IMG/VR virus record: IMGVR_UViG_2698536657_000017
Coordinates: 1-35,026 of that record
Direction: 5' to 3' (one strand)
DNA from: a virus
Taxonomy: Duplodnaviria; Heunggongvirae; Uroviricota; Caudoviricetes
DNA: 35,026 nucleotides
Below the pieces are notes generated by a model that was given only the letters and a program-made list of their open reading frames with translations, was not told the DNA's origin and made no database searches. This document shows, piece after piece, positions 8,761 to 31,880 of the stretch (position 1 is its first letter; each line of letters begins with the position of its first letter). Both the position numbers and the translations under genes were made by a program.

Positions 8761-8767
8761 GGTGGAT

Positions 8768-11592: not shown

Positions 11593-11593
11593 G

Positions 11594-14019: not shown

Positions 14020-14080
14020 GTTAACATTACGCGTCCTGCAAGACGCTTAACATTAATCTGAGGCCAATTTCATGCTGAAC
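14020..14080 (-). ncRNA. sok: Sok-like antisense RNA (boundaries approximate)
   Basis: Minus-strand promoter TTGCCT-17-TAACCT (-35 at 14110-14115, -10 at 14087-14092) points into the hok leader. The transcript would be complementary to the upstream in-frame ATG (14072) region. It contains the hairpin GCGTC-N6-GACGC (14031-14046). Confidence 0.4.
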
Positions 14081-14128
14081 ACATGTAGGTTAGCCTCTTA
14101 CGTGCCGAAAGGCAAGGAGAAGCAGGCT

Positions 14129-14284: not shown

Positions 14285-14458
14285 GAGACCTGGCGGGGGA
14301 GTAATCTCCCGCCCCCTCTGATGTGTCAGGCATCCTCAACGCACCCGTACTTTAGTTGTCATATGCTCCGCAAAATGCAGGTTGTCGTTGCAACCCGTGC
14401 GGTAATTTTTTGTGTGCGAGTGCTCAAAAAACGTTGATTTTCATAAAAGGACGATTTT

Positions 14459-16543: not shown

Positions 16544-16602
16544 ATTCCCCGCTCAGCGATAAATTAAGAAGCGTTGAGTGGGGAGAGTTCAGGATTGGCG
16601 AT

Positions 16603-17139
16603 TTGTTCTATGTGAGCACAGGCTCGCTTATCTCCTCAGGAAGATTAAAACCAGGCAAAATTAAACGTGTTTCAGCAAAGAGCGATCAAAACGGTATCAT
16701 CGGAGAGTTTGATACCGAGTTTATGGATGATGCAAGGCATTATGAAAATTTTATAAGCGTTAATTTTTTTGGAGATGCTTTTTATCATCCTTATTGTGCC
16801 AGCGTAGAAATGAAGGTGCATGTTCTTACATTAAAATCAAGTAAGTCCGACTTTAATGCAAAGCGCGGACTGTATGTTGCCAGTATGATTAATAAAGCTT
16901 TAAAGGGGCGTTTTAATTATGGTCAACAGTTATCGAGTTCCAAACTCAGAGATGGAGAATATTTCATCTCATTACCAGTGAAAAATAATGAAATTGACTG
17001 GTTTTTTATGGATAATTATATAGAAGAGCTGGAAGCGGCCCATATAGAAGAGCTGGAAGCTTACTTGCTGGTTAGCGGACTCGCGGACTCGCGGACTCGC
17101 GGACTCGCGGACTCGCGGACTCGCGGACTCGCGGACTGA
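16603..17139 (+). CDS. HsdS-like specificity subunit, N-terminal half (TRD1 plus central helix), terminated inside or after an 8-mer repeat tract
   Basis: The frame is open from 16522. It has the conserved S-subunit N-terminal motif VEWGEFRIGDLF, a TRD-like body, and a coiled-coil FFMDNYIEELEAAHIEELEAYL. It then reads through the repeat as GLADSRTRGLADSRTRGLAD and stops at TGA 17137. The only start codon after the motif region is TTG at 16603. Confidence 0.7.
   Translation: MFYVSTGSLISSGRLKPGKIKRVSAKSDQNGIIGEFDTEFMDDARHYENFISVNFFGDAFYHPYCASVEMKVHVLTLKSSKSDFNAKRGLYVASMINKALKGRFNYGQQLSSSKLRDGEYFISLPVKNNEIDWFFMDNYIEELEAAHIEELEAYLLVSGLADSRTRGLADSRTRGLAD
17018..17060 (+). repeat. In-frame 24-bp tandem duplication (ATATAGAAGAGCTGGAAGC core, x1.8) in the S central helix
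   Basis: Copies at 17018-17036 and 17042-17060 are identical and have a 24-nt period. They encode IEELEAAH/IEELEAYL. Confidence 0.85.
17075..17137 (+). repeat. Octanucleotide tandem repeat (GCGGACTC) x7.9 between the two halves of the S gene
   Basis: There are 7 perfect units at 17075-17130 plus 7 nt of an eighth. The unit length is not a multiple of 3. The flanking ORFs are in different frames (pos mod 3 = 1 upstream, 0 downstream). Confidence 0.97.
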
Positions 17140-17201
17140 TAAGCTATGAGCTTACACCGCAGGAATATAACGCGATTGAGCTATTAAATAGCAATAATCT
17201 T

Positions 17202-17723
17202 ATGTGGGGCACTTATAACCTCAAAAAGTTATTTGGCCCCGCAATAAGAGGTAAGCGTCTGAAAAACGCAGATCGTATTCCCGGATCCTTGCCTTTTGTT
17301 ACTGCGGGTGAAGGCAATGAAGGTATTTCTGCATTTATCAGTAATGATGTTGTTGTATTCCCTGAAAATACCATTACGATAGATATGTTTGGCTCCGCAA
17401 AATACAGAAATTATGAGTATGGTGCAGATGACCATGTGGCAGTTGTTCATACAGAATTCTTTGACAGAAATGCCGTTATTTTCATAACAGCATCAATTCA
17501 TAAGTCTTCTTGTACCGGAAAGTTCAACTACGGGAGAAATTTCTATGCAAAAGATGCCGACGAGTTAATGGTATCTTTGCCGTCAAAAGATAATAACCCT
17601 GATTATTCTTTCATGGAGACGCTAATTTTAGCAGTACATAAACTGGTCATCAAAGATGTTGTCCAGTACACTGATAAAAAGCTGGTAGCGTACAGGCAGA
17701 TTACATCTGAGAAGGTCGTTTAG
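17202..17723 (+). CDS. HsdS-like specificity subunit, C-terminal half (TRD2 plus C-terminal helix)
   Basis: MWGTYNLKKLF parallels WGEFRIGDLF of TRD1. Further parallels are MFGSAKYRNYEYG vs FFGDAFYHPYCAS, and VSLPSKDNNPDYSFMETLI vs ISLPVKNNEIDWFFMDNYI. The frame is open upstream through the repeat tract (...LISYELTPQEYNAIELLNSNNLM). Confidence 0.7.
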   Translation: MWGTYNLKKLFGPAIRGKRLKNADRIPGSLPFVTAGEGNEGISAFISNDVVVFPENTITIDMFGSAKYRNYEYGADDHVAVVHTEFFDRNAVIFITASIHKSSCTGKFNYGRNFYAKDADELMVSLPSKDNNPDYSFMETLILAVHKLVIKDVVQYTDKKLVAYRQITSEKVV

Positions 17724-17845
17724 TGCAAATCCCCACCTGACAGGGTGGGGAATGGTCAGGTTATCGTGCCCTGATGCAGAAAAACAGTTTACAATCGTAA
17801 AAATCATCATATCATGACAAAAGTGGTTACATTGCCACGCAGCCG

Positions 17846-17870
17846 AACCCGCCGATGCGCGGGTTTTTTG
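17846..17870 (+). terminator. Intrinsic terminator
   Basis: AACCCGC-cgat-GCGGGTT followed by a T6 run. Confidence 0.7.
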
Positions 17871-18050
17871 TATCCGGAATCCTGTGAGTTATACGGAAAG
17901 TACACAGAAAGGAAGGTGCGACCGCAATTAATAACAAAATCTTAAAAATTGCATATGGCACTATTAGTTTTCTAAATATTGTATATTTTGAGTATTGCAG
18001 GATATCCCCTGTAACGAAGTTTGCGTAACAGCATTTTACTCTACGAGTTT

Positions 18051-18081
18051 GCCAGCCTCCCCCAGTGGGCTGGCTTTTTTT
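18051..18081 (+). terminator. Intrinsic terminator
   Basis: GCCAGCC-tcccccagtg-GGCTGGC followed by T7. The T-run occurs only in the plus orientation. Confidence 0.65.
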
Positions 18082-18298
18082 ATCTGATGCGCTTCACATC
18101 AGGGTGACGTTCTGTTGCCGCTTCATGGAAAATGTCGCTGAGCCAGCCCGGTATCTCGTCTTCTGTCATATCGTCTGGAATGACAATATCGTATAACCGG
18201 GAGAATTTTCGTTCTGTCAGGTCTGCCCGGAAGACCAGCCAGTGATCACCTTCACGTTTGACACCAATATGTCGACCAAAGACGTTGTAGATTAGCAC
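18080..18298 (-). CDS. Hypothetical small acidic protein (72 aa, GTG start)
   Basis: AAGAGG RBS 6 nt upstream of the GTG. It is the only convincing minus-strand gene inside the rightward late region. No family recognised. Confidence 0.55.
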   Translation of the reverse strand: MLIYNVFGRHIGVKREGDHWLVFRADLTERKFSRLYDIVIPDDMTEDEIPGWLSDIFHEAATERHPDVKRIR

Positions 18299-18485
18299 TA
18301 TCGACCTCTTTCAGGAATTGTGTAACTGAGATGACAGATTCAGATTTCGTCAATAAATGCAAAATGTCAATCCTGAGATCATGGTGAGCTATCTGGCGGT
18401 TTTTTATATCTGTTTAACGGGGGATGTTACATACCTCACAATTCAGTCAGTTGAAGGTTGTCTGCCCGGATGAGAATTTGTTAGA

Positions 18486-18663
18486 AAATTTCTGCATGGT
18501 GAATCCCCCTGAGCGGAGGGGCATATCAGCGACAGGTGGTTGGTTATATCCCTTATCTGGTGCGGGTTCAGGTGCTGATACTGAACTCACCGGGAGGCAC
18601 CCGGCACCATGCAATGAACGGTACATAGCGCTACTCTTCAGCCCCTCTCCGGAGGGGCTTTTT
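18486..18663 (+). ncRNA. Candidate structured RNA / short terminated transcript, unit 1 (ends approximate)
   Basis: Promoter-like TTGAAG (18451-18456) with TGaGAATTT downstream. Closing helix TGCATGGTG (18493-18501) pairs with CACCATGCA (18605-18613). Hairpins CCCCT-N6-AGGGG and CCGGG-aggca-CCCGG. Terminator AGCCCCTC-tccg-GAGGGGCT-TTTT (18640-18663). Confidence 0.45.
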
Positions 18664-18752
18664 AATGAGGGGAAGACACTGGGCAGTGAAATGTTAAATC
18701 ACTCACAATTCAGGTAGTTGACGGTTGTCTGCTTGGCTGAGAATTTGTAAAA

Positions 18753-18939
18753 AAAATCCTGCATGGTGAATCCCCCTGTGCGGAGGGGCGACTGGTGAAT
18801 GGTATGATCTCTTTGATGATCGTAAGCGAGAATACGCGGGTTTGGTGGCACCAGGCCGAACTCACCGGGAGGCACCCGGCACCATGCAGTATACAGAGAT
18901 TAGGCATATACCAAGGCCCCTCATAGCAGGGGCCTTTTT
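18753..18939 (+). ncRNA. Candidate structured RNA / short terminated transcript, unit 2 (ends approximate)
   Basis: Promoter-like TTGACG with TGaGAATTT. Perfect 10-bp closing helix CTGCATGGTG (18759-18768) pairs with CACCATGCAG (18880-18889). It has the same two hairpins as unit 1. It has its own terminator AGGCCCCT-catagc-AGGGGCCT-TTTT (18914-18939). Confidence 0.45.
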
Positions 18940-19157
18940 ACATGCAAAAAAAGCCGCCCCGGGAAGAGCGGTTGGCAAGAAGAAAAGCAATATGAACAAT
19001 TAATTAACGATGGGAATAATACCTTAGAGTAATCACCTTGCGCAACTGTAAGGGCATATTTCATCTTTGCGGGCTGTTTTTCCGGGTGACTTCTGTGTTT
19101 CCGGAGGCCAGCCTGTACCTTCTCTGACTCAGAACATTATCCCGGCCGGGAGGATTC

Positions 19158-21068
19158 ATGGCATTTAAACACTATGACGTGGTCAGGGCGGCGTCGCCGT
19201 CAGACCTTGCGGAACGAATAACTCAAAAACTGAAGGAAGGGTGGCAGCCTTATGGTAGTGCGCTGATTTCGACAGCTGGTTATGGTGCGGAGTTCATCCA
19301 GCCAGTTGTGAGTGAGGGGAGCATCTCATCACCAGAGGAGCCAGGCAACCGTCCGACGACCTCAGCGCCTTCTGTTGCGCCAGAATATTACTATGTGATC
19401 GCGCTTGCTGGTCAGTCCAATGGTATGTCATACGGTGAGGGACTGCCATTACCGGATACATTCGACAGCCCTGATCCACGTATTAAACAGTTAGCGCGTC
19501 GCAGTACGGTGACACCGGGAGGTGCTGCATGTATCTATAACGATATTATCCCGGCAGATCACTGTCTCCATGATGTGGAGGATATGACAGGGCTTAATCA
19601 TCCCAAAGCGGATTTATCGAAAGGTCAGTACGGCTGTGTGGGACAGGGGCTGCATATCGCCAAAAAGCTTCTGCCATTTATACCGGCGAATGCGGGCATT
19701 CTTCTTGTTCCGTGCTGCCGTGGTGGTTCAGCTTTCACCACCGGAACCGATGGCACATACAGTGACACTACTGGCGCCTCAGAGAGTTCCACCCGCTGGG
19801 GGGTGGGCAGGCCGCTGTATAAGGACCTCATTGGTCGTACAAAAGCCGCGCTGGCGAAGAATCCGAAAAATGTGCTGCTTGCCGTGGTATGGATGCAAGG
19901 GGAATTTGATTTTAACGGAACGCCAGCGAATCATGCAGCCCGTTTTACAGAAGTGGTGGATCAATACCGTGCGGACCTTGCAGATATGGCGGGGCAGTGT
20001 GTGGGTGGCTCAGCTGACAGTGTTCCCTGGATTTGTGGAGACACAACATATTTCTGGAAGCAGAAGAACGAAACGGCGTACCAGACGGTGTACGGTAGTT
20101 ACAAAAATAAAACGGAAAAGAATATCCATTTCGTGCCGTTCATGACCGATGAGAACGGGGTGAATGTGCCGACGAACAAACCGGAAGAAGACCCGGATAT
20201 TCCGGATATCGGGTATTACGGTTCAAAATGGCGAACGGACAGAAGCACCTGGACATCTCAGGACAGGGCCAGTCATTTCAGTTCATGGGCTCGCCGTGGG
20301 ATTATTTCCGACCGTCTGGCAACGGCGATTCTGAGCTGCGCGGGTAAGTCTTCTGCGTTTGTTAATGGTACTGCCGGGGTGGTTGTTCCAGACAGACCGG
20401 TTACCACCTCAGAGTCTGTAATTTTTTACGATGCCAAAAAAGCTTCAGACAATCAGCTGAAACCTTATGGCTGGGACGGTATGGATGGCAGACGCACACT
20501 GGTTGATGACAGCGGCAATAAAGCTCTGCGAATTGAGAAAAATAACAGCGCGAAATCCTGGTCAATGTACTGTGATATTGCTGCAGACAAGGCAAAACTT
20601 TTACTGGAAAAAGGCGGGGAAATTGCTGTCCGGTTTAAAATCCCCGAAAACGTCAATCTTGAGACAACCAGAAACAAGTATGCCTTTGGTTTGTACTGGC
20701 GAATAGCGGAATGGCCGGGTGAGGGTGGTGAAGGCTATCTGAGTTCTTTCTTTGTCCAGACAGATAAAGCCAGTATTGATGTTGCATACCATCATACAGT
20801 TAATCAACAAAAAGAACTTGGCACGTTTGGCGCATTCGACCATGACTGGCATACGCTTGCATTTAAATTTAAGGGCAGTAACAGCATTAATGTTACTCCG
20901 GTGCTTGATGGTGTGGATGGACAGGCGTTTGACCTGGTGAAATGGGCCAATACTGCTAATGGACTCAACAGGTTTGTCATTACGGATATTACAGGTAGTG
21001 CAGAAACCTACCCTGTACTTATTGATACGGTGGAAGTTAAAGCAAACAAAGCTGGAGCAGCCGCATAA
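19158..21068 (+). CDS. nanS-p: Prophage sialate O-acetylesterase NanS-p type (DUF1737 N-terminus plus SASA/DUF303 esterase plus C-terminal domain), 636 aa
   Basis: N-terminal MAFKHYDVVRAASPSDLAERITQKLKEGWQPYGS (DUF1737-like). Esterase block YYYVIALAGQSNGMSYGEG with the GQSN motif. The size and the position downstream of the Q/stx slot match NanS-p genes of Stx phages, from memory. Confidence 0.85.
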   Translation: MAFKHYDVVRAASPSDLAERITQKLKEGWQPYGSALISTAGYGAEFIQPVVSEGSISSPEEPGNRPTTSAPSVAPEYYYVIALAGQSNGMSYGEGLPLPDTFDSPDPRIKQLARRSTVTPGGAACIYNDIIPADHCLHDVEDMTGLNHPKADLSKGQYGCVGQGLHIAKKLLPFIPANAGILLVPCCRGGSAFTTGTDGTYSDTTGASESSTRWGVGRPLYKDLIGRTKAALAKNPKNVLLAVVWMQGEFDFNGTPANHAARFTEVVDQYRADLADMAGQCVGGSADSVPWICGDTTYFWKQKNETAYQTVYGSYKNKTEKNIHFVPFMTDENGVNVPTNKPEEDPDIPDIGYYGSKWRTDRSTWTSQDRASHFSSWARRGIISDRLATAILSCAGKSSAFVNGTAGVVVPDRPVTTSESVIFYDAKKASDNQLKPYGWDGMDGRRTLVDDSGNKALRIEKNNSAKSWSMYCDIAADKAKLLLEKGGEIAVRFKIPENVNLETTRNKYAFGLYWRIAEWPGEGGEGYLSSFFVQTDKASIDVAYHHTVNQQKELGTFGAFDHDWHTLAFKFKGSNSINVTPVLDGVDGQAFDLVKWANTANGLNRFVITDITGSAETYPVLIDTVEVKANKAGAAA

Positions 21069-21207
21069 TTGCTAAAAAAAGCCGCCAGCGGCAGGAATGG
21101 AAGCTGGCGGAGGTAATCCCAATGGAGAATGTAAAGAAAAGATGCTTTCGTACATTGGTTTTTTAAATGAAAACAGTTCTCATTGTCAACCATAACGGTA
21201 AGAAATT

Positions 21208-21390
21208 ATGATATTTATTCATCAGGTGATGCTGTACTTCTGTACGGCGGTCTGTGTGCTGTATCTTCTTTCGGGTGGGTACAGGGCAGTGCGCGATTTC
21301 TGGCGCAGGCAGATTGATAAAAGGGCCGCTGAGAAAATCAGCGCCAGTCAGTCAGCCGGAAGCAAACCCGAAGAGCCCGTTACTCCTTAA
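21208..21390 (+). CDS. Hypothetical small membrane protein (60 aa)
   Basis: One hydrophobic helix (VMLYFCTAVCVLYLLSGG) followed by a charged tail. It sits between nanS-p and the lysis genes. Confidence 0.5.
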   Translation: MIFIHQVMLYFCTAVCVLYLLSGGYRAVRDFWRRQIDKRAAEKISASQSAGSKPEEPVTP

Positions 21391-21415
21391 CAACCCCTTT
21401 CAGCGAGAAAATCCC

Positions 21416-21688
21416 ATGTCAGAAATTACATCCCTGGTCACTGCAGAGGCAGTGAAGGAAGTCCTGCGCTCTGAAGAAGTCCGGAGCGCACTGAAACAGA
21501 AACTTCGCCAGAATCTTGAGGCGCGTCTTGATGCAGAAGTTGATGCCATTCTGGATGAGCTGCTTGGTGTACAGGCAGAGCCACCGACTGAAGCGGGAGA
21601 TACCACCGCAGAGAGCGGTGAAGTTCAGCCTGAATCACCGGTCGCCGATGCGACTGAACCTCAACCCGAATCGGTCATGATGCTGTAA
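21416..21688 (+). CDS. Hypothetical acidic protein (90 aa)
   Basis: I chose the start [15 protein letters not shown]. The longer track ORF overlaps the previous gene in another frame. Confidence 0.55.
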
Positions 21689-21764
21689 CGAGGAGTCAGG
21701 GCCATCAGTAAACGGCTGCTGGCCTTTTTCATGTTGTGAGCTTCCGGATTGCGGGAGACGGGGT

Positions 21765-21980
21765 ATGTACCAGATGGAAAAAATCACAACAGGTGTGTCA
21801 TACACCACGTCAGCGGTGGGAACGGGCTACTGGTTCCTGCAGTTGCTGGACAGGGTTTCCCCGTCTCAGTGGGCGGCAATAGGCGTGCTGGGGAGTCTGC
21901 TGTTTGGGCTGCTGACATATCTGACGAACCTGTATTTCAAGATTAAAGAAGACCGGCGTAAGGCGGCGCGGGGAGAGTAA
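21765..21980 (+). CDS. S: Class II holin, S21 (pinholin)-type, with a dual-start motif (71 aa)
   Basis: [71 protein letters not shown] closely parallels phage 21 S as I remember it. Met1/Met4 give a potential antiholin/holin pair. Confidence 0.9.
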
Positions 21981-21984
21981 GCTG

Positions 21985-22518
21985 ATGAGCAGGAAATTCC
22001 GCTATGGTTTATCAGCGGTCGTTCTGGCGCTGATTGCTGCAGGTGCTTCTGCGCCTGAAATCCTCGACCAGTTTCTTGACGAAAAAGAAGGTAACCACAC
22101 CACGGCATACCGTGATGGTGCGGGTATCTGGACCATCTGCCGTGGTGCCACCCAGGTGGATGGTAAGCCTGTCGTCCCCGGCATGAAGTTGTCGAAGGAA
22201 AAATGCGACCAGGTTAACGCCATTGAACGTGATAAGGTGCTGGCATGGGTGGCGAAAAACATCAGAGTGCCACTGACCGAACCTCAGAAAGCGGGGATCG
22301 CGTCATTCTGTCCTTACAACATTGGCCCCGGTAAGTGTTTCCCGTCGACGTTTTATAAACGAATTAATGCAGGCGATCGCAGGGGAGCGTGTGAAGCGAT
22401 TCGCTGGTGGATTAAGGACGGTGGCAGAGACTGCCGTATCCGCTCAAATAATTGCTACGGTCAGGTATCCCGTCGCGACCAGGAGAGTGCGCTGGCATGT
22501 TGGGGTATCGACAGGTAG
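21985..22518 (+). CDS. R: SAR endolysin, GH24 lysozyme (177 aa)
   Basis: N-terminal weakly hydrophobic signal-anchor-release segment (YGLSAVVLALIAAGASAP). The catalytic region EGNHTTAYRDGAGIWTICRG is typical of R21/P1 Lyz-type lysozymes. Confidence 0.92.
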   Translation: MSRKFRYGLSAVVLALIAAGASAPEILDQFLDEKEGNHTTAYRDGAGIWTICRGATQVDGKPVVPGMKLSKEKCDQVNAIERDKVLAWVAKNIRVPLTEPQKAGIASFCPYNIGPGKCFPSTFYKRINAGDRRGACEAIRWWIKDGGRDCRIRSNNCYGQVSRRDQESALACWGIDR

Positions 22519-22606
22519 CAGAATATTTTGCTGAAAAATAACGTTGGTCAACGCGGACGGATAACACGAAATCCTGCGAACTGGCAAAACCTAAGTGAAT
22601 AAAAGT

Positions 22607-22646
22607 AAAAACCCCGTTTTTGGCAGCAAGCGGGGTTTTGTGTTTA
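22607..22646 (+). terminator. Intrinsic terminator-like hairpin inside the lysis cassette
   Basis: CCCCG (22612-22616) pairs with CGGGG (22631-22635), with additional inner pairing, followed by TTTTGTGTTT. An A-run upstream makes it potentially bidirectional. Confidence 0.5.
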
Positions 22647-22710
22647 TGGCAGTAAGCTATGGGTGGCTGCCTTGATTGATTTTAGCAAACTGATTAGGGA
22701 GTTGCGACTC

Positions 22711-22806
22711 ATGATTAGTCAATTACCAAACTGGAAGTTTTTGCTGGTCTGGAGCATCCCTTTTTTATGGGGGGTATCCCAGTTAATTGTGGCAATTAAG
22801 GGGTAG
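22711..22806 (+). CDS. Candidate small hydrophobic peptide (31 aa)
   Basis: Hand-translated MISQLPNWKFLLVWSIPFLWGVSQLIVAIKG, with GGGAG upstream. It is below the ORF-track cutoff. Confidence 0.3.
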   Translation: MISQLPNWKFLLVWSIPFLWGVSQLIVAIKG

Positions 22807-22808
22807 CT

Positions 22809-22940
22809 ATGTCAGACAAACTCATAACGCTGGCGAAGATCCTCTGTGTAATCGTCGGCATTTCATTTTCACTAATGCTGGTTGCTATTTTTCTTTTCCT
22901 GCCCTGGATGATGTTGTCTTCGTCGGGGATGCTGGGGTAA
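22809..22940 (+). CDS. Candidate small single-TM peptide (43 aa)
   Basis: Hand-translated MSDKLITLAKILCVIVGISFSLMLVAIFLFLPWMMLSSSGMLG, with AAGGGG upstream. It starts 2 nt after the previous small ORF's stop. Confidence 0.35.
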   Translation: MSDKLITLAKILCVIVGISFSLMLVAIFLFLPWMMLSSSGMLG

Positions 22941-23122
22941 CAGTGACTGATGACATCAGCAGAGCGCTGGCTTTGCTATTAAGTGGGTGGCGGTTGGTAT
23001 CGCTGTGTCTCCGATACTGTATGGGCTGGCAAAACTGGTCATTGCGCTGAAATCGTGAACTTTATTTAAACAGATGAGTAATGAAATTGCTGTACTGGTC
23101 CGGGCAATTCGCTGGTGGTGAT

Positions 23123-23584
23123 ATGAACCGTATTCTGTATGTGGTGATTATTGTACTGCTGGTGGCCTGTGGTGCGCTTAGTCTGGGGCTGAATCATTAC
23201 CGCGATAACGCCATCACCTACAAAGCGCAGCGCGATAAAAAAGCCAGAGAGCTGGAGCTAGCAAACGCAACCATTACTGACATGCAGCAGCGCCAGCGTG
23301 ATGTTGCTGCGCTTGATGCCAGATACTCAAGGGAATTAGCCGATGCGAGAGCTGAAAATGAAACTCTGCGCGCTGATGTTGCCGCTGGTCGTAAGCGCCT
23401 GCGGATCAACGCCACCTGCTCCGGTACCGTGCGTGAAGCCCCCACCACCTCCGGCGTGGATAATGCAACCGCCCCCCGACTGGCAGACACAGTTGAACGG
23501 GATTATTTCACTCTCAGAGAGCGGTTGATGCTGATGCAGAAGCAGCTGGAAGGGGCACAGGACTATATCCGCACTCAGTGCTGA
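23123..23584 (+). CDS. Rz: i-spanin Rz (153 aa)
   Basis: N-terminal TM ([18 protein letters not shown]) followed by a coiled-coil periplasmic domain, with an Rz1 gene embedded in the +1 frame. I chose the start MNRILY. Confidence 0.85.
23343..23528 (+). CDS. Rz1: o-spanin Rz1 lipoprotein (61 aa), embedded in Rz
   Basis: Lipobox LVVSAC. The proline-rich mature part [27 protein letters not shown] is nearly identical to lambda Rz1 as I remember it. Confidence 0.88.
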
Positions 23585-23883
23585 ACTAAGTTTTGCTGAT
23601 GCGCCGTATCGTCGCCGTATTCCCGCATAAACAGAGACCGCAGCCACCTTATCTGCGTGAGTGTGCGGGGGTAATCAAAAACGATGCACACCGGGTTTTC
23701 TCATTTTTCACGAGATGGGAGCGATTTCCCGCGAAGCCGCCTGTCCGGTGCGGTGGTGGAAGAAACCGGATAAAACAACCTCATTGTACAAATATCGATC
23801 AAGTATGGCGCTGCTGTGTGAATTCTGAAAAATCACAGCGGTCATTATGCGTCAGTTTTTAACAGAGGACGTCAGAAAGTGAC

Positions 23884-24690
23884 ATGGCAAAGCTGGACTG
23901 GAAAAAGCTGGAGCAGGCATTCCGACGCGAACATGCCGAAACGGGAATAACATTACTGGACTGGTGCCGGAAGAAAAAGATTAATTACAACACCGCCAGA
24001 ACCCGTATAAAAATGGGCAAAATCGATCATGAAATTGATCATAAAACCGATCATGAAATCGATCATGACATCTCAGATGAAGAACCCAGCAATGACGCGT
24101 GTTCCGACGATGAAAAATGCGCAAAAAACTCTGAAAAAAACTGCGCAAATTCGGCAGAAACGAAACGGATTCGTGGTTCCCGACTTTTACCTCCTTCAAA
24201 CGCTTTTTCTCAGCGAAACACCCACGCCGTAAGACACCGTGGATATGCGAAGTATCTTGAGGCAGATAACCTCATGGATGATGCGTCCGACATGGTGCTG
24301 TTCGATGAACTGGTGTTCACCCGGGCCCGCGCACTTTCAGTAACTAAGGCACTTAAAGGGATGTTCGCCGACCTGGAAGAGGCAACTGACGTGGAAACCC
24401 GCGTTGCTCTTTACGACAAAATACTCAAAGCTGAACAGGCCCTTGACCGGAATATTGCCCGTATCGAGTCAATTGAACGCTCATTGCTGACGCTGGACGT
24501 CCTGGCTGAGACAGCACCAAAACTTCGTGCTGACCGGGAAAGAATCAACGCCGCCAGAGATAAACTCAGAGCGGAAACCGATATTCTGACCAGCCAGCGC
24601 CGGGGTGTTATTACGCCAGTCAGTGACATCGTGTCATCGCTGCATGAAATGAGTAATTCGGGGAGACTGGATGACATTCCGGAAGAATAA
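23884..24690 (+). CDS. terS: Terminase small subunit (268 aa)
   Basis: N-terminal HTH-like segment (GITLLDWCRKKKINYNTARTRIKMG). It lies immediately upstream of, and overlaps, the large terminase gene. The C-terminal half is coiled-coil. Confidence 0.7.
   Translation: MAKLDWKKLEQAFRREHAETGITLLDWCRKKKINYNTARTRIKMGKIDHEIDHKTDHEIDHDISDEEPSNDACSDDEKCAKNSEKNCANSAETKRIRGSRLLPPSNAFSQRNTHAVRHRGYAKYLEADNLMDDASDMVLFDELVFTRARALSVTKALKGMFADLEEATDVETRVALYDKILKAEQALDRNIARIESIERSLLTLDVLAETAPKLRADRERINAARDKLRAETDILTSQRRGVITPVSDIVSSLHEMSNSGRLDDIPEE
24022..24069 (+). repeat. Four tandem 12-bp units, each containing GATC (ATCGATCATGAA-like)
   Basis: Units at 24022, 24034, 24046 and 24058, with GATC at 24025, 24037, 24049 and 24061 (exact 12-bp phasing). 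They are codon-aligned and encode IDHE-IDHK-TDHE-IDHD. Confidence 0.9.
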
Positions 24691-26377
24691 AACGCGATGT
24701 GATGAACCTGCAGAAATGACTGAGACCGAACAACGTCTGTTCATTATGACAAAACTGAGCAATCCCTGGTGGCGCCTCAATCATCTCTACAAAATACAGA
24801 ACGAAAAAGGTGAACTGGTCACCTTCAGAATGCGACCGGCGCAACGTCAGTTGTTTCGTAACATGCATAATAAAAACATTATCCTGAAAGCGCGCCAGCT
24901 GGGATTTTCCACAGCCATTGATATTTATCTTCTCGACCAGGCATTATTCATTCCGCATCTCAAATGCGGGATCGTCGCTCAGGATAAACAGGCTGCCAGT
25001 GAAATTTTCCGCACAAAAATTGCTGTACCGTTTGATCATCTCCCTGACTGGCTGAGAGCCTCATTCACCATCGTTGAACGTCGTAGCGGTGCCTGCGGTG
25101 GCTATATCCTGTTTGGTCACGGCTCGAGTATTCAGGTGGCAACCTCATTTCGCTCAGGTACGGTGCAGCGCCTGCATATCTCAGAGCACGGCAAAATTTG
25201 CGCGAAATATCCGGCTAAGGCGAAAGAGCTGCGAACCGGTACGCTTAATGCCGTCTCTGATGAATGCATTATTTTTGATGAATCCACGGCTGAAGGCGTG
25301 GGTGGTGATTTTTACGAGATGAGTAACCGTGCACAGGAGAGCACTGCATCAGGCTTATTGCTGACGGCACAGGATTATAAATTCCATTTTTACGCATGGT
25401 GGCAGGATCCTAAATACAGCGCCAGAGTGCCTGAAAGCGGGCTGAAGCTGTCACGGGAAAAAATGACGTATTTTTCTGCGGTTGAGAAGGCAATGAACAT
25501 CACGCTTACCGATGAGCAGAAGCAGTGGTACATCAGTAAGGAAACTGAACAGCGTGAGGAAATGAAGCAGGAGTTTCCCTCAACGCCACAGGAGGCGTTT
25601 CTGACGTCCGGACGACGTGTGTTCAGTGCCGAAAGTACATTGCAGGCAGAATCATTCTGTTCGCCACCGATGATTGTTTATGACATTGAACCTGTTACAG
25701 GAGCGAAGACTAAAGCTCAGTCTCTGCGTGAAGGAAATAAAAACGAGTTGCAGCGGACGCTGATGAATTATCTGCTGGTATGGGAACTGCCGGATCCGGA
25801 TGAAGAGTATGTTTGTGGGGCAGATACTGCCGAAGGGCTGGAGCACGGAGACCGCTCATCGCTGGATGTTGTCAAACGCAGTAATGGCGAGCAGGTGGCT
25901 CACTGGTTCGGGCATCTCGATGCTGAACTTTTTGCTCATCTCATTTCGCAGGTCTGTCGTATGTATAACAACGCGTTTGTGGGGCCGGAGCGTAATAATC
26001 ACGGACATGCAGTTATCCTGAAACTCCGGGAACTCTATCCGACACGTTATATCTACAACGAACAGCATCTTGACCAGGCATATGACGACGATACGCCCCG
26101 CCTTGGCTGGCTGACAACCCGTCAGAGCAAACCTGTTCTGACCGAAGGAATGAAAACGCTCCTGAATAATGGAATATCAGGGATCCGCTGGTCAGGCACA
26201 TTATCGGAAATGAACACCTACGTTTATGACGCGAAAGGCTCCATGAATGCACAGGAAGGCTGCTTTGATGATCAGCTCATGAGCTACATGATTGCCCAGG
26301 AGATGCGCGCCAGAATGCCGGTGAGGGTAAAACAGAAAACGGATAAACGCAGAACCACACACTGGATGGCACACTGA
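24671..26377 (+). CDS. terL: Terminase large subunit (568 aa; alternative start at 24716)
   Basis: Size and position fit. ATPase-like N-terminal half (ILKARQLGFST Walker-A-like; IIFDEST Walker-B-like) and a nuclease-like C-terminal half. An in-frame ATG at 24716 avoids the overlap with terS. Confidence 0.88.
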   Translation: MTFRKNKTRCDEPAEMTETEQRLFIMTKLSNPWWRLNHLYKIQNEKGELVTFRMRPAQRQLFRNMHNKNIILKARQLGFSTAIDIYLLDQALFIPHLKCGIVAQDKQAASEIFRTKIAVPFDHLPDWLRASFTIVERRSGACGGYILFGHGSSIQVATSFRSGTVQRLHISEHGKICAKYPAKAKELRTGTLNAVSDECIIFDESTAEGVGGDFYEMSNRAQESTASGLLLTAQDYKFHFYAWWQDPKYSARVPESGLKLSREKMTYFSAVEKAMNITLTDEQKQWYISKETEQREEMKQEFPSTPQEAFLTSGRRVFSAESTLQAESFCSPPMIVYDIEPVTGAKTKAQSLREGNKNELQRTLMNYLLVWELPDPDEEYVCGADTAEGLEHGDRSSLDVVKRSNGEQVAHWFGHLDAELFAHLISQVCRMYNNAFVGPERNNHGHAVILKLRELYPTRYIYNEQHLDQAYDDDTPRLGWLTTRQSKPVLTEGMKTLLNNGISGIRWSGTLSEMNTYVYDAKGSMNAQEGCFDDQLMSYMIAQEMRARMPVRVKQKTDKRRTTHWMAH

Positions 26378-28521
26378 TGAAAAATGAAATTAACACCACA
26401 GCGATGAAAAACGATCATGGATCCACGCCGCGTTTTTCTCAGCGTCAGTTACTGTCTCTCTGTTCTGATATTGACAGTCAGCCTCTCTGGCGTGATGCCG
26501 CAAACAAGGCCTGTGCGTATTATGATGGCGACCAGCTGGCACCGGAAGTTATCCAGGTACTGAAAGATCGCGGTCAGCCCATGACCATCCATAACCTCAT
26601 TGCCCCCACGGTAGATGGTGTACTGGGAATGGAGGCAAAAACAAGAACGGACCTGATAGTGATGTCAGACGATCCGAACGATGAAACAGAGAAACTGGCA
26701 GAGGCCATTAATGCGGAGTTTGCTGATGCGTGCCGTCTTGGCAACATGAATAAGGCCCGCTCCGATGCCTATGCGGAACAAATCAAGGCGGGGCTCAGTT
26801 GGGTGGAGGTCAGGCGCAACAGCGATCCGTTCGGACCTGAATTCAGGGTATCCACAGTCAGCAGAAATGAGGTTTTCTGGGACTGGCTCAGCCGGGAATC
26901 CGACCTGAGTGACTGCCGGTGGCTGATGCGTCGCCGCTGGATGGATACCGATGAGGCAAAAGCCACGTTCCCGGGAATGGCTCAGGTTATCGATTATGCT
27001 ATTGATGACTGGCGTGGTTTTGTCGATACCACGATTACTGAAGGCCAGCCCAGTCCGTTGATGAGTGCATGGGAAGAGTATCAGTCATGGGATCGCAGGG
27101 AGAATGAATGGCTTCAGCGTGAACGCCGTCGTGTGCTGCTTCAGGTGGTTTATTACCGTACATTCGAGCGTCTTCCGGTGATTGAACTCAGTAATGGACG
27201 GGTGGTGGCTTTTGATAAAAATAATCTGATGCAGGCGGTGGCTGTGGCATCCGGGCGGGTTCAGGTGAAAGTCGGGCGGGTAAGTCGTATTCGTGAAGCC
27301 TGGTTTGTGGGCCCACACTTTATTGTGGATCGCCCCTGTAGTGCTCCGCAGGGGATGTTTCCGCTGGTTCCTTTCTGGGGATACCGAAAGGATAAAACCG
27401 GGGAGCCATACGGGTTAATTTCCCGCGCCATTCCGGCACAGGATGAGGTGAATTTTCGTCGTATCAAGCTGACCTGGCTGCTTCAGGCCAAACGCGTGAT
27501 TATGGATGAGGATGCCACCCAGTTGTCAGACAGCGACCTGATGGAGCAGATCGAACGTCCAGATGGCATTATTAAACTGAATCCGGCCCGAAAAAATCAG
27601 AAAAGTGTCGCAGATGTTTTTCGGGTTGAGCAGGATTTTCAGGTTGCCAGCCAGCAGTTTCAGGTCATGCAGGAATCGGAAAAACTTATCCAGGATACCA
27701 TGGGAGTGTATTCCGCATTTCTCGGGCAGGATTCAGGTGCGACGTCAGGCGTGGCTATCAGTAACCTGGTGGAGCAGGGGGCCACAACCCTTGCGGAAAT
27801 CAACGATAACTACCAGTTTGCCTGCCAGCAGGTGGGAAGACTGTTGCTGGCTTATCTTCTCGATGACCTGAAAAAACGCCGTAATCATGCAGTGGTGATT
27901 AATCGCGATGATCGCCAGCGTCGCCAGACCATTGTCCTCAATGCTGAAGGTGATAATGGTGAACTGACCAATGATATTTCAAGGTTAAATACACATATTG
28001 CGCTGGCGCCTGTTCAGCAGACACCGGCGTTTAAGGCACAGCTTGCACAGAGAATGTCAGAGGTTATTCAGGGGCTGCCGCCTCAGGTGCAGGCTGTTGT
28101 GCTCGACCTGTGGGTTAATCTTCTGGATGTGCCGCAGAAACAGGAGTTTGTTGAGCGTATTCGTGCTGCGCTGGGGACGCCAAAATCACCGGATGAAATG
28201 ACGCCGGAAGAACAGGAAGTAGCGGCACAACAACAGGCACTTCAGCAACAACAGGCAGAACTCCAGATGCGCGAGATGGCTGGCAGAGTGGCAAAACTGG
28301 AAGCTGACGCCGCCAGGGCACATGCAGCTGCACAACGGGATAATGCCAGTGCACAGCGGGAAGTCGCCCTGACACAGGGGCAGCGTTATGTGGATGCGCT
28401 TAACCAGGCACATACGGCAGAAATCATTACCGGCGTACAGAATATGGAACAGGAGCAGGACGTTCTTCAGCAACAGATGCTGTATACGTTACAACAGCGG
28501 ATGAATGAAATGTCGCTCTGA
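26377..28521 (+). CDS. Portal protein (714 aa)
   Basis: A large ORF whose start overlaps the terL stop (TGATG). It has a Q/A-rich coiled-coil C-terminus. The order terS-terL-portal is typical, and it resembles the portals of 933W-type phages from memory. Confidence 0.85.
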   Translation: MKNEINTTAMKNDHGSTPRFSQRQLLSLCSDIDSQPLWRDAANKACAYYDGDQLAPEVIQVLKDRGQPMTIHNLIAPTVDGVLGMEAKTRTDLIVMSDDPNDETEKLAEAINAEFADACRLGNMNKARSDAYAEQIKAGLSWVEVRRNSDPFGPEFRVSTVSRNEVFWDWLSRESDLSDCRWLMRRRWMDTDEAKATFPGMAQVIDYAIDDWRGFVDTTITEGQPSPLMSAWEEYQSWDRRENEWLQRERRRVLLQVVYYRTFERLPVIELSNGRVVAFDKNNLMQAVAVASGRVQVKVGRVSRIREAWFVGPHFIVDRPCSAPQGMFPLVPFWGYRKDKTGEPYGLISRAIPAQDEVNFRRIKLTWLLQAKRVIMDEDATQLSDSDLMEQIERPDGIIKLNPARKNQKSVADVFRVEQDFQVASQQFQVMQESEKLIQDTMGVYSAFLGQDSGATSGVAISNLVEQGATTLAEINDNYQFACQQVGRLLLAYLLDDLKKRRNHAVVINRDDRQRRQTIVLNAEGDNGELTNDISRLNTHIALAPVQQTPAFKAQLAQRMSEVIQGLPPQVQAVVLDLWVNLLDVPQKQEFVERIRAALGTPKSPDEMTPEEQEVAAQQQALQQQQAELQMREMAGRVAKLEADAARAHAAAQRDNASAQREVALTQGQRYVDALNQAHTAEIITGVQNMEQEQDVLQQQMLYTLQQRMNEMSL

Positions 28522-28540
28522 AAACTCTGGCTTCAACTGA

Positions 28541-28566
28541 ACCCCGTCATCGTACGGGGTTTTTTG
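28541..28566 (+). terminator. Intrinsic terminator after the portal gene
   Basis: ACCCCGT-catcgt-ACGGGGT followed by T6. Confidence 0.75.
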
Positions 28567-28678
28567 TTTCCGGAGGTAAGCGTTCCGGGAGCGGTGCGCT
28601 TATTCGCGGGGGCAGCGATAAGCCTTATTTACTCAACCATTCGGATCTGTCCGATAAACAGACCATGCGGAGTTATTT

Positions 28679-29686
28679 ATGGATTTTGAATTTACGGGTG
28701 AAGAAACCCCGGAACAACTGGAAAAAATGCTGGAAGGACTTGGGGATGTGGATATTGACAGTCACGCACAGGACGTCGTGACGGAAGATACCACGGAAAA
28801 ACATGCGGATGAGGAAGCACAGACTCAGACGGGCGATAACAATGTGGCACCGACGCCGGATGCCAGTGTGGAGCAGACGCAGGACGTGAAGGAGCCGGAA
28901 GCGAAGGGGGTGCTCACCCGCGACGGTAAACACGTCATTCCCTATGAAGTCCTTGAGGCTGAACGTTCCGGTAAGCAACGGGCCGAACAGGAAGCCGCAC
29001 TTCTTCGTGGGCAGATAGCTGAAGAAAAACGCAGGGTGGAACTGCTGACATCTCAGATCCACCAGGCCGGTATGAAGCCCACACCGTTACCGGAAAACGA
29101 AAAAATTTCTGATGAGCAGATTGCCCGTATCAGGGAGATGTATCCGGAAATTGGTGACGCGGTGGCTTCGCTCATCCGTAAAAATAACTATCTCCAGTCC
29201 CGTGTTCAGCAATCAACACAGCAGGCAGAAGGTAATGGTGGTGAGTATTTATCACCGGTTCTTGATGCGATGAATGCCGTGCCGGTGCTGAAAACGTGGC
29301 AGGAGTCCGATCCGGATCGCTTCTCGGTTGCTGTATCCATCGACGGGAAGCTCCAGAATGACCCCGCATGGAAAGACAAAACGCTCACTGAACGTTTCGC
29401 TGAAGTGGCCCGTCGTACGCAGGTTGCTTTCGGTGAAGTCAGTGAGTCGTCTGCTGACAACCAGGCAGACAAAACGGATATCCGGAAAACGGCGGAAGAA
29501 AAAGTGAAGACCGCTGAACAGGAGCAGGCAGTACCTGCTTCCCCGTCAGATTTAGGCACCACGGCCTCCGTCGGAACCGGTGATAATTTTGAACGGTTAC
29601 TTGGTGCTTCTCATTCAGAGGCTGAGGCGATTATGCGTGGTATGACGAATGCTGAAATAGACGCACTTCTGGAGAAGCTCGGGTAA
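28679..29686 (+). CDS. Scaffolding-like protein (335 aa)
   Basis: Highly acidic, low-complexity and helical (E/Q/A-rich). It sits between the portal and major capsid genes. GGAG RBS. Confidence 0.6.
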   Translation: MDFEFTGEETPEQLEKMLEGLGDVDIDSHAQDVVTEDTTEKHADEEAQTQTGDNNVAPTPDASVEQTQDVKEPEAKGVLTRDGKHVIPYEVLEAERSGKQRAEQEAALLRGQIAEEKRRVELLTSQIHQAGMKPTPLPENEKISDEQIARIREMYPEIGDAVASLIRKNNYLQSRVQQSTQQAEGNGGEYLSPVLDAMNAVPVLKTWQESDPDRFSVAVSIDGKLQNDPAWKDKTLTERFAEVARRTQVAFGEVSESSADNQADKTDIRKTAEEKVKTAEQEQAVPASPSDLGTTASVGTGDNFERLLGASHSEAEAIMRGMTNAEIDALLEKLG

Positions 29687-29709
29687 CTTACTGAAGGAGT
29701 ACTGAAGTA

Positions 29710-30924
29710 ATGACGACTGTAACATCAGCCCAGGCGAATAAGCTGTATCAGGTGGCGCTTTTTACCGCTGCCAACCGCAACCGCTCGATGGTTAATATCC
29801 TTACTGAACAGCAGGAAGCGCCAAAAGCGGTTTCGCCGGACAAGAAAAGCACGAAGCAGACCAGCGCAGGTGCGCCGGTTGTCCGTATCACAGACCTTAA
29901 CAAACAGGCCGGTGATGAAGTGACCTTCAGCATCATGCACAAACTCTCAAAACGTCCGACGATGGGAGATGAGCGTGTTGAAGGTCGTGGTGAGGATCTC
30001 AGCCATGCTGACTTCTCCCTGAAAATCAATCAGGGACGTCACCTGGTGGATGCAGGCGGACGTATGAGTCAGCAGCGCACGAAGTTTAACCTGGCATCCT
30101 CTGCCAGAACGCTTCTGGGGACGTACTTTAATGACCTGCAGGACCAGTGTGCGATAGTGCATCTTGCGGGAGCTCGTGGTGATTTTGTTGCTGACGACAC
30201 CATTCTGCCGACAGCGGAGCACCCTGAATTCAAAAAAATCATGATCAACGATGTACTGCCTCCGACACATGACCGTCACTTTTTTGGCGGTGATGCGACA
30301 AGCTTTGAGCAGATTGAAGCGGCAGATATTTTTTCTATTGGCCTGGTGGACAATCTCTCCCTGTTCATTGACGAAATGGCGCATCCGTTACAGCCGGTTC
30401 GTCTGTCCGGTGATGAACTTCACGGAGAAGATCCATATTACGTCCTGTACGTCACGCCGCGTCAGTGGAATGACTGGTACACCTCGACGTCCGGTAAGGA
30501 CTGGAACCAGATGATGGTTCGTGCCGTGAACCGTGCAAAAGGTTTTAATCATCCGCTGTTCAAAGGTGAATGTGCGATGTGGCGCAATATCCTGGTTCGT
30601 AAGTATGCGGGTATGCCGATCCGTTTCTATCAGGGGTCAAAGGTTCTGGTATCAGAGAATAACCTGACGGCAACCACGAAAGAGGTCGCTGCTGCAACCA
30701 ATATTGACCGCGCCATGTTACTGGGGGCTCAGGCGCTGGCAAATGCTTACGGTCAGAAGGCGGGCGGTCACTTCAACATGGTTGAGAAGAAAACGGATAT
30801 GGATAACCGTACTGAGATAGCAATCAGCTGGATCAACGGTCTGAAAAAAATCCGTTTCCCCGAGAAGAGCGGCAAGATGCAGGATCACGGCGTGATTGCC
30901 GTTGATACAGCAGTGAAGCTCTGA
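29710..30924 (+). CDS. Major capsid protein (404 aa)
   Basis: It follows the scaffold gene, has a strong GAAGGAG RBS, and is followed by a strong terminator. Its size is typical of a major capsid protein. Confidence 0.8.
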   Translation: MTTVTSAQANKLYQVALFTAANRNRSMVNILTEQQEAPKAVSPDKKSTKQTSAGAPVVRITDLNKQAGDEVTFSIMHKLSKRPTMGDERVEGRGEDLSHADFSLKINQGRHLVDAGGRMSQQRTKFNLASSARTLLGTYFNDLQDQCAIVHLAGARGDFVADDTILPTAEHPEFKKIMINDVLPPTHDRHFFGGDATSFEQIEAADIFSIGLVDNLSLFIDEMAHPLQPVRLSGDELHGEDPYYVLYVTPRQWNDWYTSTSGKDWNQMMVRAVNRAKGFNHPLFKGECAMWRNILVRKYAGMPIRFYQGSKVLVSENNLTATTKEVAAATNIDRAMLLGAQALANAYGQKAGGHFNMVEKKTDMDNRTEIAISWINGLKKIRFPEKSGKMQDHGVIAVDTAVKL

Positions 30925-30941
30925 TTTTTTCCTTTCCCCAT

Positions 30942-30965
30942 GCCGGGTTTTCGCCCGGCTTTTTC
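30942..30965 (+). terminator. Intrinsic terminator after the capsid gene
   Basis: GCCGGG-ttttcg-CCCGGC followed by T5. Confidence 0.75.
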
Positions 30966-30979
30966 AGGAGTCATTAATT

Positions 30980-31369
30980 ATGGCAAAGACTATCCTTGCC
31001 CCGTCACTGAGTGAACGGGTCTATACGGGTACGCACGGTAATGAGTCGGTGGCAGAAGGCGTATTTACGGTGAATGCTGCGGAAGCGGACAGTGTTATTC
31101 ATCTTCTCTCACTGCCAGTGGGCATCCGTATCAACTCACTCCAGCTGGTTTCAACGGGTGGTCTGGGTACTGCAACCGTCAGCATTAAGTCCGGTGAGCA
31201 TGCTCTCATCGATAACAGCGAAGCTGTTTCTGCAAAATTTGCCAGATATGTGCCAGTGGAGCCGTACACCACACAGCGTGACGGGGAGCTGGTTACTGTC
31301 ACCATTAAGACTGCCGCTGCAACCGGCACCCTGAATGTTCTGCTGCGTTATACCGTGGTGGGATACTGA
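30980..31369 (+). CDS. Hypothetical structural protein (129 aa), possible head decoration or accessory protein
   Basis: GGAG RBS. It is bracketed by two terminators next to the capsid gene. Its composition is beta-rich. Confidence 0.65.
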   Translation: MAKTILAPSLSERVYTGTHGNESVAEGVFTVNAAEADSVIHLLSLPVGIRINSLQLVSTGGLGTATVSIKSGEHALIDNSEAVSAKFARYVPVEPYTTQRDGELVTVTIKTAAATGTLNVLLRYTVVGY

Positions 31370-31382
31370 TTAAAACCTTCCG

Positions 31383-31404
31383 GCCCGCGTCATGCGGGCT
31401 TTTT
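31383..31404 (+). terminator. Intrinsic terminator
   Basis: GCCCGC-gtcat-GCGGGC followed by T5. Confidence 0.75.
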
Positions 31405-31418
31405 ATCCGGGGAATTAT

Positions 31419-31880
31419 ATGAGTGAGAAAATTGCCGTTGTCTATATCGGCCCAAAACCCGTGAAAAAGGACACCATTACCGGAAGCCGCACATTGTTCC
31501 CGCGTCTTGAGCCGGTGCATGTTGACAGTGCGATGGCCTGGCAACTGCTGGGGTTTCCGGATGTCTGGGTTCGTCATGAAGAGCTTGATGATGTTCTGAA
31601 AAAGCAACAACAGAATGAGCAGTTGCGGCAGGCACAGCAGGCGCAGGAAAGAGTGCTTGCTGCGCGGGCAGAAGCGGAGAACAGTTTTGTTGTTTCTGTT
31701 AACGGGCAGGAGGTGGATTTAAGTAAGCTCACCTCAGCACGGCTGGCGACGCTGTGTGAGGCAGAAGAGCTGGATATTCACAAAGACCCGAAAGAAACGG
31801 CTGAGGCATTCCGTATCCGGGTGCGTGAGGCATTTCGCCGTCGTGTTGCGGAGACTGAACAGCATGGCGGAACTGAGTGA
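31419..31880 (+). CDS. Hypothetical structural-module protein (153 aa)
   Basis: The start MSEKIAVVYIGPKP has GGGGA upstream. The longer track start lies inside the terminator. Confidence 0.6.
   Translation: MSEKIAVVYIGPKPVKKDTITGSRTLFPRLEPVHVDSAMAWQLLGFPDVWVRHEELDDVLKKQQQNEQLRQAQQAQERVLAARAEAENSFVVSVNGQEVDLSKLTSARLATLCEAEELDIHKDPKETAEAFRIRVREAFRRRVAETEQHGGTE

Follow-up and report, generated by a model that had tools for sequence, protein, structure and literature searches.

We find a candidate pac-type packaging site inside the small-terminase gene (terS) of a 933W-like Escherichia coli prophage. Four phased YGATCA hexamers in the 5′ part of this gene are probably the main recognition array for the small terminase, TerS, in a pac site resembling that of phage P1, from which DNA would be packaged by the headful mechanism. 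The gene lies in IMG/VR virus record IMGVR_UViG_2698536657_000017 (Caudoviricetes), of which positions 1 to 35,026, one strand, were analyzed and are called the window here. That a pac site can be built of repeated hexamers in a small-terminase gene is already known from P1. What appears to be new is its presence in the 933W lineage of Shiga toxin (Stx) phages, its form as a single tandem cluster mixed with TGCGCA elements, and a family-wide series of hexamers tied to one helix of TerS (helix 3). An earlier note on this DNA had proposed a pac-type site within terS, and the proposal now gains comparative support from the relation of TerS to P1 PacA, the equivalent position of the P1 hexamers, arrays in homologous genes that are clearly selected as DNA, and the link between hexamer and helix 3.

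The hexamer array and its gene

The four 12-bp units, ATCGATCATGAA, ATTGATCATAAA, ACCGATCATGAA and ATCGATCATGAC, start exactly at 24022, 24034, 24046 and 24058, with GATC at 24025, 24037, 24049 and 24061. Their hexamers are CGATCA (24024-24029), TGATCA (24036-24041), CGATCA (24048-24053) and CGATCA (24060-24065), which read TGATCG, TGATCA, TGATCG and TGATCG on the opposite strand. On one strand or the other, each of them matches the P1 consensus TGATC(A/G), to which the earlier note had likened the array; the strict 12-bp spacing and the coordinates that the note gave for it were exact. Tandem Repeats Finder reports a repeat of period 12 with 4.4 copies at 24020-24072 (score 78). GATC is slightly rarer in the window than base composition predicts (121 versus ~136 sites), and the array is its only 100-bp stretch with four of them. 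The cluster is thus a tandem repeat and not part of a general enrichment. The nearest other GATC sites are at 23797 and 24970. The first belongs to a lone CGATCA (23796-23801) in the 300-bp gap that follows an Rz-like gene, 88 bp ahead of the start of terS. Its flanks are similar in part (AATATCGATCAAGTA), and it could be a chance occurrence, given 22 YGATCA in 35 kb.

The array is in frame and lies in the first 190 coding nucleotides of terS. As the earlier note had read it, it encodes IDHE IDHK TDHE IDHD (TerS residues 47-62). The same note had taken this peptide for an odd insertion, which is mistaken: it aligns with SAQK-type repeats at the same place in homologues. On the + strand, TGCGCARA occurs twice in 35 kb, both times as a TGCGCAAA element inside terS, 53 and 77 bp downstream of the array and within a period-12 repeat (24113-24149) also reported by Tandem Repeats Finder. 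As in other small terminases of headful-packaging phages, which have a helical oligomerization core, TerS is predicted to have an N-terminal helix-turn-helix and long helices, and its gene is followed by terL, whose start it overlaps by 20 nt, and by a P22-like portal gene (Table 1). TerL is presumably the nuclease and motor that TerS recruits.

Table 1. Features of the terS region, in coordinates of the window.
Feature	Position	Strand	Basis
terS, small terminase subunit, 268 aa	23884..24690	+	PHROG phrog_370 'terminase small subunit', E 2.6e-123
N-terminal three-helix (helix-turn-helix) module, residues 1-45, probably related to P1 PacA	23884..24018	+	AlphaFold2, BLASTP, hhalign, PHROG
Helix 3 and flank, residues 35-43 (YNTARTRIK), putative recognition helix	23986..24012	+	Co-varies with hexamer type
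Predicted disordered linker, residues 46-116, with both hexamer clusters inside	24019..24231	+	AlphaFold2 pLDDT (predicted local distance difference test) <50, block means 31-48
Four 12-bp units, each with YGATCA; proposed TerS-binding elements of pac, all Dam sites	24022..24069	+	Tandem repeat; Salmonella hexamer retention
TGCGCAAA element 1, family-typical hexamer, read Cys-Ala-Lys	24118..24125	+	Conserved in TGCGCA-type relatives
TGCGCAAA element 2, 24 bp after element 1, read Cys-Ala-Asn	24142..24149	+	Conserved in TGCGCA-type relatives
terL, large terminase subunit, 568 aa	24671..26377	+	PHROG phrog_2 'terminase large subunit', E 4e-53
Portal protein, 714 aa	26377..28521	+	Pfam PF16510 P22_portal, E 1.6e-126

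PacA, homologous arrays and helix 3

Sequence comparison gives moderate support to a relation between the N-terminal module of TerS and P1 PacA, extending over only ~45-90 residues. TerS residues 4-48 align with PacA residues 1-45 (BLASTP E 0.009), and a profile of the TerS family matches PacA in hhalign with E 3.4e-5 and a probability of 72%. The profile match is reciprocal: PacA, which falls in phrog_1711 (E 4e-202), matches phrog_370 with E 1.9e-4, and the first 100 residues of the window's TerS match phrog_1711 with E 1.1e-6. P1 pac spans 161 bp and contains seven TGATCA/G hexamers and an IHF site; its cleavage is regulated by methylation, and synonymous recoding of its hexamers lowers the titer ~9-fold (PMC10028697). 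We located GATC hexamers in pacA (NC_005856) at 45724, 45731, 45743 and 45758 and at 45854, 45866 and 45877, that is, 4 + 3 within 160 bp, downstream of the helix-turn-helix codons; they are read as IIDH, NDQ, GDH, NDR, DDH and VIT. They begin at about codon 65, after NTARRYL (residues 33-39), and the window's array occupies codons 47-62, after helix 3 (35-41). On this alignment, the array stands at a position equivalent to the left hexamer cluster of P1.

The wider family was sampled as 377 TerS homologues, with DNA of ~110 loci from GTDB genomes and IMG/VR plus two Salmonella loci. Short repeats always lie directly after the N-terminal domain in the family alignment, and their kinds differ. 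Most homologues carry TGCGCA, usually as TGCGCA(A/G)A, four to eight times in the 100-250 bp after the helix-turn-helix, and one or two TGCGCA elements also occur further downstream in relatives. Hosts of this type include Escherichia, Citrobacter, Salmonella, Serratia, Yersinia, Dickeya and Aeromonas. Hexamers in homologues are mostly spaced 9, 10, 12 or 14 bp apart. Across the set TGCGCA is read in all three frames, with two or three frames used per gene: as cTG CGC AAa (Leu-Arg-Lys or Val-Arg-Lys), as agT GCG CAa (Ser-Ala-Gln) and as TGC GCA AAa (Cys-Ala-Lys or Cys-Ala-Asn). We resampled synonymous codons over the first 130 codons, keeping the protein fixed and drawing on codon usage pooled from these same genes, which makes the comparison conservative. 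In 16 diverse loci of TGCGCA type, ranging from Escherichia to Aeromonas, four to eight copies were observed versus 0.3-1.2 expected (P ≤ 6e-4 for each). This motif has therefore been selected as DNA and not as peptide, because its count is far above the synonymous expectation and several frames are used.

Other branches of the family have other hexamers. A Pectobacterium/Brenneria clade carries TTCGCA or ATCGCA five to six times within ~75 bp, in two frames (Ser-Gln, Ile-Arg). Relatives in Salmonella, whose TerS is 57-62% identical to that of the window, carry three to five YGATCA at strict 12-bp spacing. Their units (AGTGATCAAAAA, AGTGATCATAAA, AACGATCATGAA and others) encode SDQK, SDHK and NDHE, so that the residues at repeat positions 1, 3 and 4 differ from those of the window, whereas the pattern A..YGATCA..RAA persists, as does the phase; in its extended form the consensus reads AAAnYGATCAwrAA. 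The Salmonella unit AGTGATCAAAAA and the E. coli TGCGCA unit AGTGCGCAAAAA share their flanks and differ only in the central dinucleotide. Within the window, the first TGCGCA of the family (IK-LRK) is mutated to IK-MGK (ATGGGCAAA), and the four YGATCA stand in place of the SAQK-type array. An IMG/VR scan for three GATCAT at 12-bp spacing was dropped, because more than 120 unrelated loci matched, giant viruses included, and the bare pattern is therefore non-specific.

These homologues also bear on a role for the repeat at the level of the protein, in which a His/Asp-rich (DHxx)n peptide would bind metal or set the reach of the helix-turn-helix from the TerS ring, and the DNA motif would be secondary. 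Such a role would suit a repeat that has His and Asp every four residues, changes in length by whole units and sits directly between the DNA-binding domain and the linker. However, homologues have Ser-Ala-Gln-Lys or Ser-Gln-Ile-Arg repeats, with neither His nor Asp, at the same place, and His alternates with Gln in Salmonella. The repeat peptide has no match in Pfam or the Protein Data Bank (PDB) and no confident structure. More generally, no Pfam domain was found for TerS, and a PDB sequence search with TerS and a Foldseek search with its AlphaFold2 model returned only chance or coiled-coil matches. We regard this role as quite improbable.

Helix 3 tracks the kind of hexamer. AlphaFold2, run with the family alignment, predicts helices at residues 6-20, 24-31 and 35-41 (pLDDT 73-86) and long helices at 113-238; the linker between these two parts, with a pLDDT of ~32, is the most variable part of the family alignment. 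In helix 3, ART[RQ]IK goes with YGATCA, ARR[YH][IL]K with TGCGCA and AKR[YH]IT with TTCGCA, and all 82 distinct genes and 103 full-length proteins compared follow this pattern. Outside helix 3, the closest relative of the window's TerS is the E. coli TGCGCA type, with 27/34 identities in the N-terminal part and 145/150 in the C-terminal part; that of the Salmonella GATC type is a TGCGCA type from Salmonella, with 30/34 and 128/150. In helix 3 itself the two GATC types agree at eight of nine positions, versus six of nine for each with its own nearest backbone. The association thus runs counter to the phylogeny of the backbone, which means that helix 3 changes, or is exchanged, together with the array as a unit. 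Separately, a group of Salmonella homologues (protein clusters P0067, P0068, P0073, P0069-P0072, P0091 and P0110) keeps the C-terminal body of TerS and has a different N-terminal helix-turn-helix, followed by a Lys/Arg-rich linker without SAQ or DH repeats, which suggests that the DNA-binding module is exchanged as a cassette.

A bolder reading, which we put forward as doubtful, is that the TerS family forms a natural series of pac-specificity swaps, in which two or three helix 3 residues were retuned together with the central dinucleotide (TGCGCA, TTCGCA, YGATCA), and that the switch to GATC in 933W and Salmonella placed the initiation of packaging under Dam control. If this were true, the switch would repeat the P1 solution in a clinically important lineage of Stx phages, and both packaging and the generalized or lateral transduction of host and toxin genes would be tied to the state of replication and methylation.

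Copy number, alternatives and proposed packaging mechanism

The number of 12-mers among related phages, a comparison that the earlier note had suggested, varies from 1 to 7, with natural copy numbers of 1, 2, 3, 4, 5 and 7 and a mode of 4. Among 5,426 complete E. coli genomes the locus is present in 386; ~370 records have four units, and about 17 of 387 give a match 12 bp shorter, the three shown among these having three units. In IMG/VR, 38 of 38 pattern matches have four units, and one contig has five. Protein clusters add arrays of five (P0044, 57 members), seven (P0002), two (P0017) and one unit (P0026); all but P0044 are singletons, two of them (P0017 and P0026) partial sequences. The sole point difference within natural arrays is a T/C change at the third base of unit 2, and YGATCA is intact with either base. 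The induced phage Lys12581Vzw was considered as a three-unit example and rejected, as it has four. The strong mode at four fits either constraint or recent common ancestry.

A further form of this locus is seen in a group of Stx2a prophages of ~48-51 kb (LC727843.1, 3001-4433), in which terS is cut immediately after a three-unit array, GATCATGACATC being followed directly by TGAACCGCCCCGGG. The interrupting element carries open reading frames (ORFs) for IS3-family OrfA/OrfB transposases. Many 'partial terminase' proteins in databases (P0007, 173 members) start just past the array, and these starts probably reflect assembly breaks at the IS3-type junction.

Since copy number varies, slippage does operate at this locus, and the alternative that the earlier note had offered stands to that extent; as a reason to exclude a function of the DNA it fails. 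In its strict form this alternative holds that the repeat is only an in-frame linker peptide made by slippage, that GATC is a by-product of Asp-His codons, and that pac lies elsewhere or recognition is loose. Besides the polymorphic copy number, it can draw on the single frame shared by all units, on the predicted disorder of the ~70-residue segment that contains the peptide, and on an enrichment of YGATCA over synonymous codons that is only marginal in GATC-type genes (P 0.01-0.06). It does not account for homologous arrays that run in several frames and exceed what selection on the peptide would give, for Salmonella peptides that differ while YGATCA and the 12-bp phase are retained, or for a helix 3 that tracks hexamer type, and the proven pac hexamers of the P1 homologue lie at the equivalent place (PMC10028697). 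Slippage alone is weakened mainly by the multi-frame homologous arrays and the P1 parallel, and we consider it unlikely.

The array might instead be a binding site that serves something other than packaging, such as autoregulation of terS and terL by TerS, or timing of late functions after replication as sensed by SeqA or Dam. SeqA reads hemimethylated DNA and uses phased GATC clusters, and clusters of this kind suit such readers; binding this early in terS could also affect expression. Most relatives, however, have non-GATC arrays that neither Dam nor SeqA could read, and P1, the one characterized homologous system, uses its hexamers for pac cleavage (PMC10028697). A role of this kind seems to us very improbable.

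Several observations nevertheless weigh against a P1-like pac array in the window. The codon evidence from the array itself is weak (four YGATCA observed versus 1.63 expected by synonymous resampling, P 0.03), because the units are tandem duplicates in one frame and not independent. The window's terS lacks the bipartite 4 + 3 arrangement of GATC hexamers; its downstream elements are instead TGCGCAAA, and these retained TGCGCA elements leave a mixed picture of specificity. A scan for the IHF consensus WATCAANNNNTTR with at most one mismatch, on both strands of 23950-24300, gave no match, a consensus scan being a weak test. Copy number in nature spans 1 to 7, although arrays of four predominate. 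Fewer than 40 bp separate helix 3 from the array, a distance at which linkage alone could cause both to be inherited together, and their co-variation comes down to just three or four independent changes. P1 combines an ARRY-type helix 3 in PacA with TGATCR hexamers, and there is thus no simple recognition code. Finally, the hexamers of most relatives are not substrates of Dam, and methylation is therefore not intrinsic to the mechanism of the family.

Dam methylation may still affect recognition or cleavage in the window as it does in P1. We advance this tentatively, on the ground that every element of the array is a Dam site, as in P1. The hosts are Dam-positive. Gating by Dam is opposed by the non-Dam hexamers of most family members and by the window's own gene content: no Dam-type enzyme is encoded in it, and its sole methyltransferase is of the HsdM family. 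For comparison, some relatives carry a nin-region DNA methyltransferase, such as the 175-aa enzyme encoded at 16823-17350 of 933W (NC_000924), which is absent from the window.

Headful packaging itself is suggested by work on 933W, whose virion DNA is reported to be terminally redundant and which is an efficient generalized transducer of host markers (PMC3752737). Phages of this type must therefore have a pac site. A cos site in 23585-23883, the alternative named in the earlier note, was set aside, as 933W-type DNA is reported to be terminally redundant (PMC3752737). In the literature we searched, nothing relevant was found on a mapped 933W pac site, on PhageTerm data for Stx phages or on a link to PacA. 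We also considered whether phage records that end at terS could serve as evidence for pac and found them uninformative, because such records follow the order of the prophage or had been reopened at terL by their authors.

We infer TerS binding, the cut position and the direction of packaging. Late in infection, the PacA-like helix-turn-helix domains of oligomeric TerS would contact the phased hexamers, one domain per hexamer, about one helical turn apart, and the two TGCGCAAA elements might take part. TerL, recruited by the TerS complex, would next make the first cut close by, possibly between the two clusters (~24066-24117), and a headful series would start from there.

Prophage context and comparison with known systems

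The late region that includes terS belongs to the Stx-phage lineage. In the terS region, the window is 100% identical to Escherichia phage phiSTEC1589-Stx1c and 98-99% identical to 933W, VT2-Sakai, P13374 and more than 200 other Stx phages; the terS genes of 933W and the window share 98.5% of their nucleotides. Colinearity of the whole window with phiSTEC1589-Stx1c was rejected, as the match runs only from ~17780 onward. The window is in fact a mosaic: its late region (17780-35026) is 98.5-100% identical to phiSTEC1589-Stx1c, and its early and replication region (1-17780), with a helicase, a toprim primase and Q (13480-13929), resembles PhiR12_3 and Oslovirus-type phages. The 35-kb window contains no stx genes and so belongs to the 933W-like group as a stx-negative member. 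Overall it is best matched by a prophage of E. coli CFIAFB20190167 that lies beside rcsB and likewise lacks stx. The window was re-annotated against this prophage, which carries a replication module of helicase and primase and, downstream of Q, a cargo of HsdM and HsdS.

In the window, the hsd cargo lies downstream of Q, in the place that stx takes in phiSTEC1589 and 933W. A 694-aa HsdM-family methyltransferase (14459-16543) is followed by two hsdS half ORFs (16603-17139 and 17202-17723), at whose junction the octanucleotide GCGGACTC is repeated perfectly 7.9 times (17075-17137, Tandem Repeats Finder score 126). At the present copy number the frame meets TGA, and another frame continues into GLISYELTPQEY, a read-through that parallels the intact 361-aa HsdS of a related prophage without the repeat. 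The arrangement resembles a type I specificity gene that is subject to phase variation and travels as prophage cargo. A perfect 7-bp tandem repeat, GACCAGC in 3.6 copies (14468-14492), falls in the first codons of the HsdM-family ORF and is potentially another frameshift-type repeat in the same module.

Phages like 933W, the main carriers of Shiga toxin genes, use headful packaging and also transduce host DNA. With a 150-bp candidate at 24000-24170, the initiation of packaging, transduction and possible Dam control become directly testable. How small terminases read pac is poorly understood, and the joint change of hexamer and recognition helix on near-identical proteins supplies ready pairs for specificity swaps in studies of binding and structure. 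A possible use is in phage vectors with orthogonal packaging signals.

Among known systems, the pac sites of SPP1 (pacL and pacR, bound by G1P) and P22 (a 22-bp site in gene 3) also lie within or overlap the small-terminase gene, and in both phages the N-terminal helix-turn-helix of TerS recognizes the site and packaging is by headful. Their proteins and DNA motifs are unrelated to those of the window, and P22 has one asymmetric site and not a phased array; we know of no methylation control of pac in either phage. The R-elements of lambda cosB, bound by gpNu1, are likewise repeated short elements recognized by the winged helix-turn-helix of an oligomeric small terminase. Lambda, however, packages from cos, with nicking at a defined site and bending assisted by IHF; its elements are not in coding sequence, and no sequence relation is seen.

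Closer are the TGCGCA- and TTCGCA-type terS genes of phrog_370 (for example, in PhiR12_3 and in prophages of Citrobacter, Salmonella, Serratia, Yersinia, Dickeya, Pectobacterium and Aeromonas), which encode the same protein family as the window. They share its gene order (lysis genes, terS, terL, P22-like portal), and their arrays likewise follow the helix-turn-helix directly, with A-rich flanks and 9-14 bp spacing. We found no experimental study of these arrays in the searched literature. The difference lies in the central dinucleotide, TG-CG-CA or TT-CG-CA in these relatives versus YG-AT-CA in the window, so that among these hexamer types only that of the window is a Dam substrate.

The comparison with P1 has two sides. 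P1 has two clusters (4 + 3) flanking the cut site, whereas the window has a single tandem cluster of four followed by two TGCGCAAA. Beyond the N-terminal module TerS is unrelated to PacA, and the large subunit is unrelated to PacB (BLASTP of TerL against PacB gave E 5.5 at best, no similarity). P1 encodes the Dam-type Dmt, whereas the window has only its HsdM-family enzyme, and it is for P1 that the methylation dependence of pac has been shown. Both, on the other hand, have TGATC(A/G) hexamers that each contain a Dam site and that lie in the 5′ part of the small-subunit gene, just past the codons of the N-terminal helix-turn-helix. In both, the hexamers are mostly read as Asp-His or Asp-Gln and are spaced by about one helical turn (7, 12 and 15 bp and 12 and 11 bp in P1; 12, 12 and 12 bp in the window). 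Headful packaging and generalized transduction complete the likeness, being reported on the window's side for 933W (PMC3752737).

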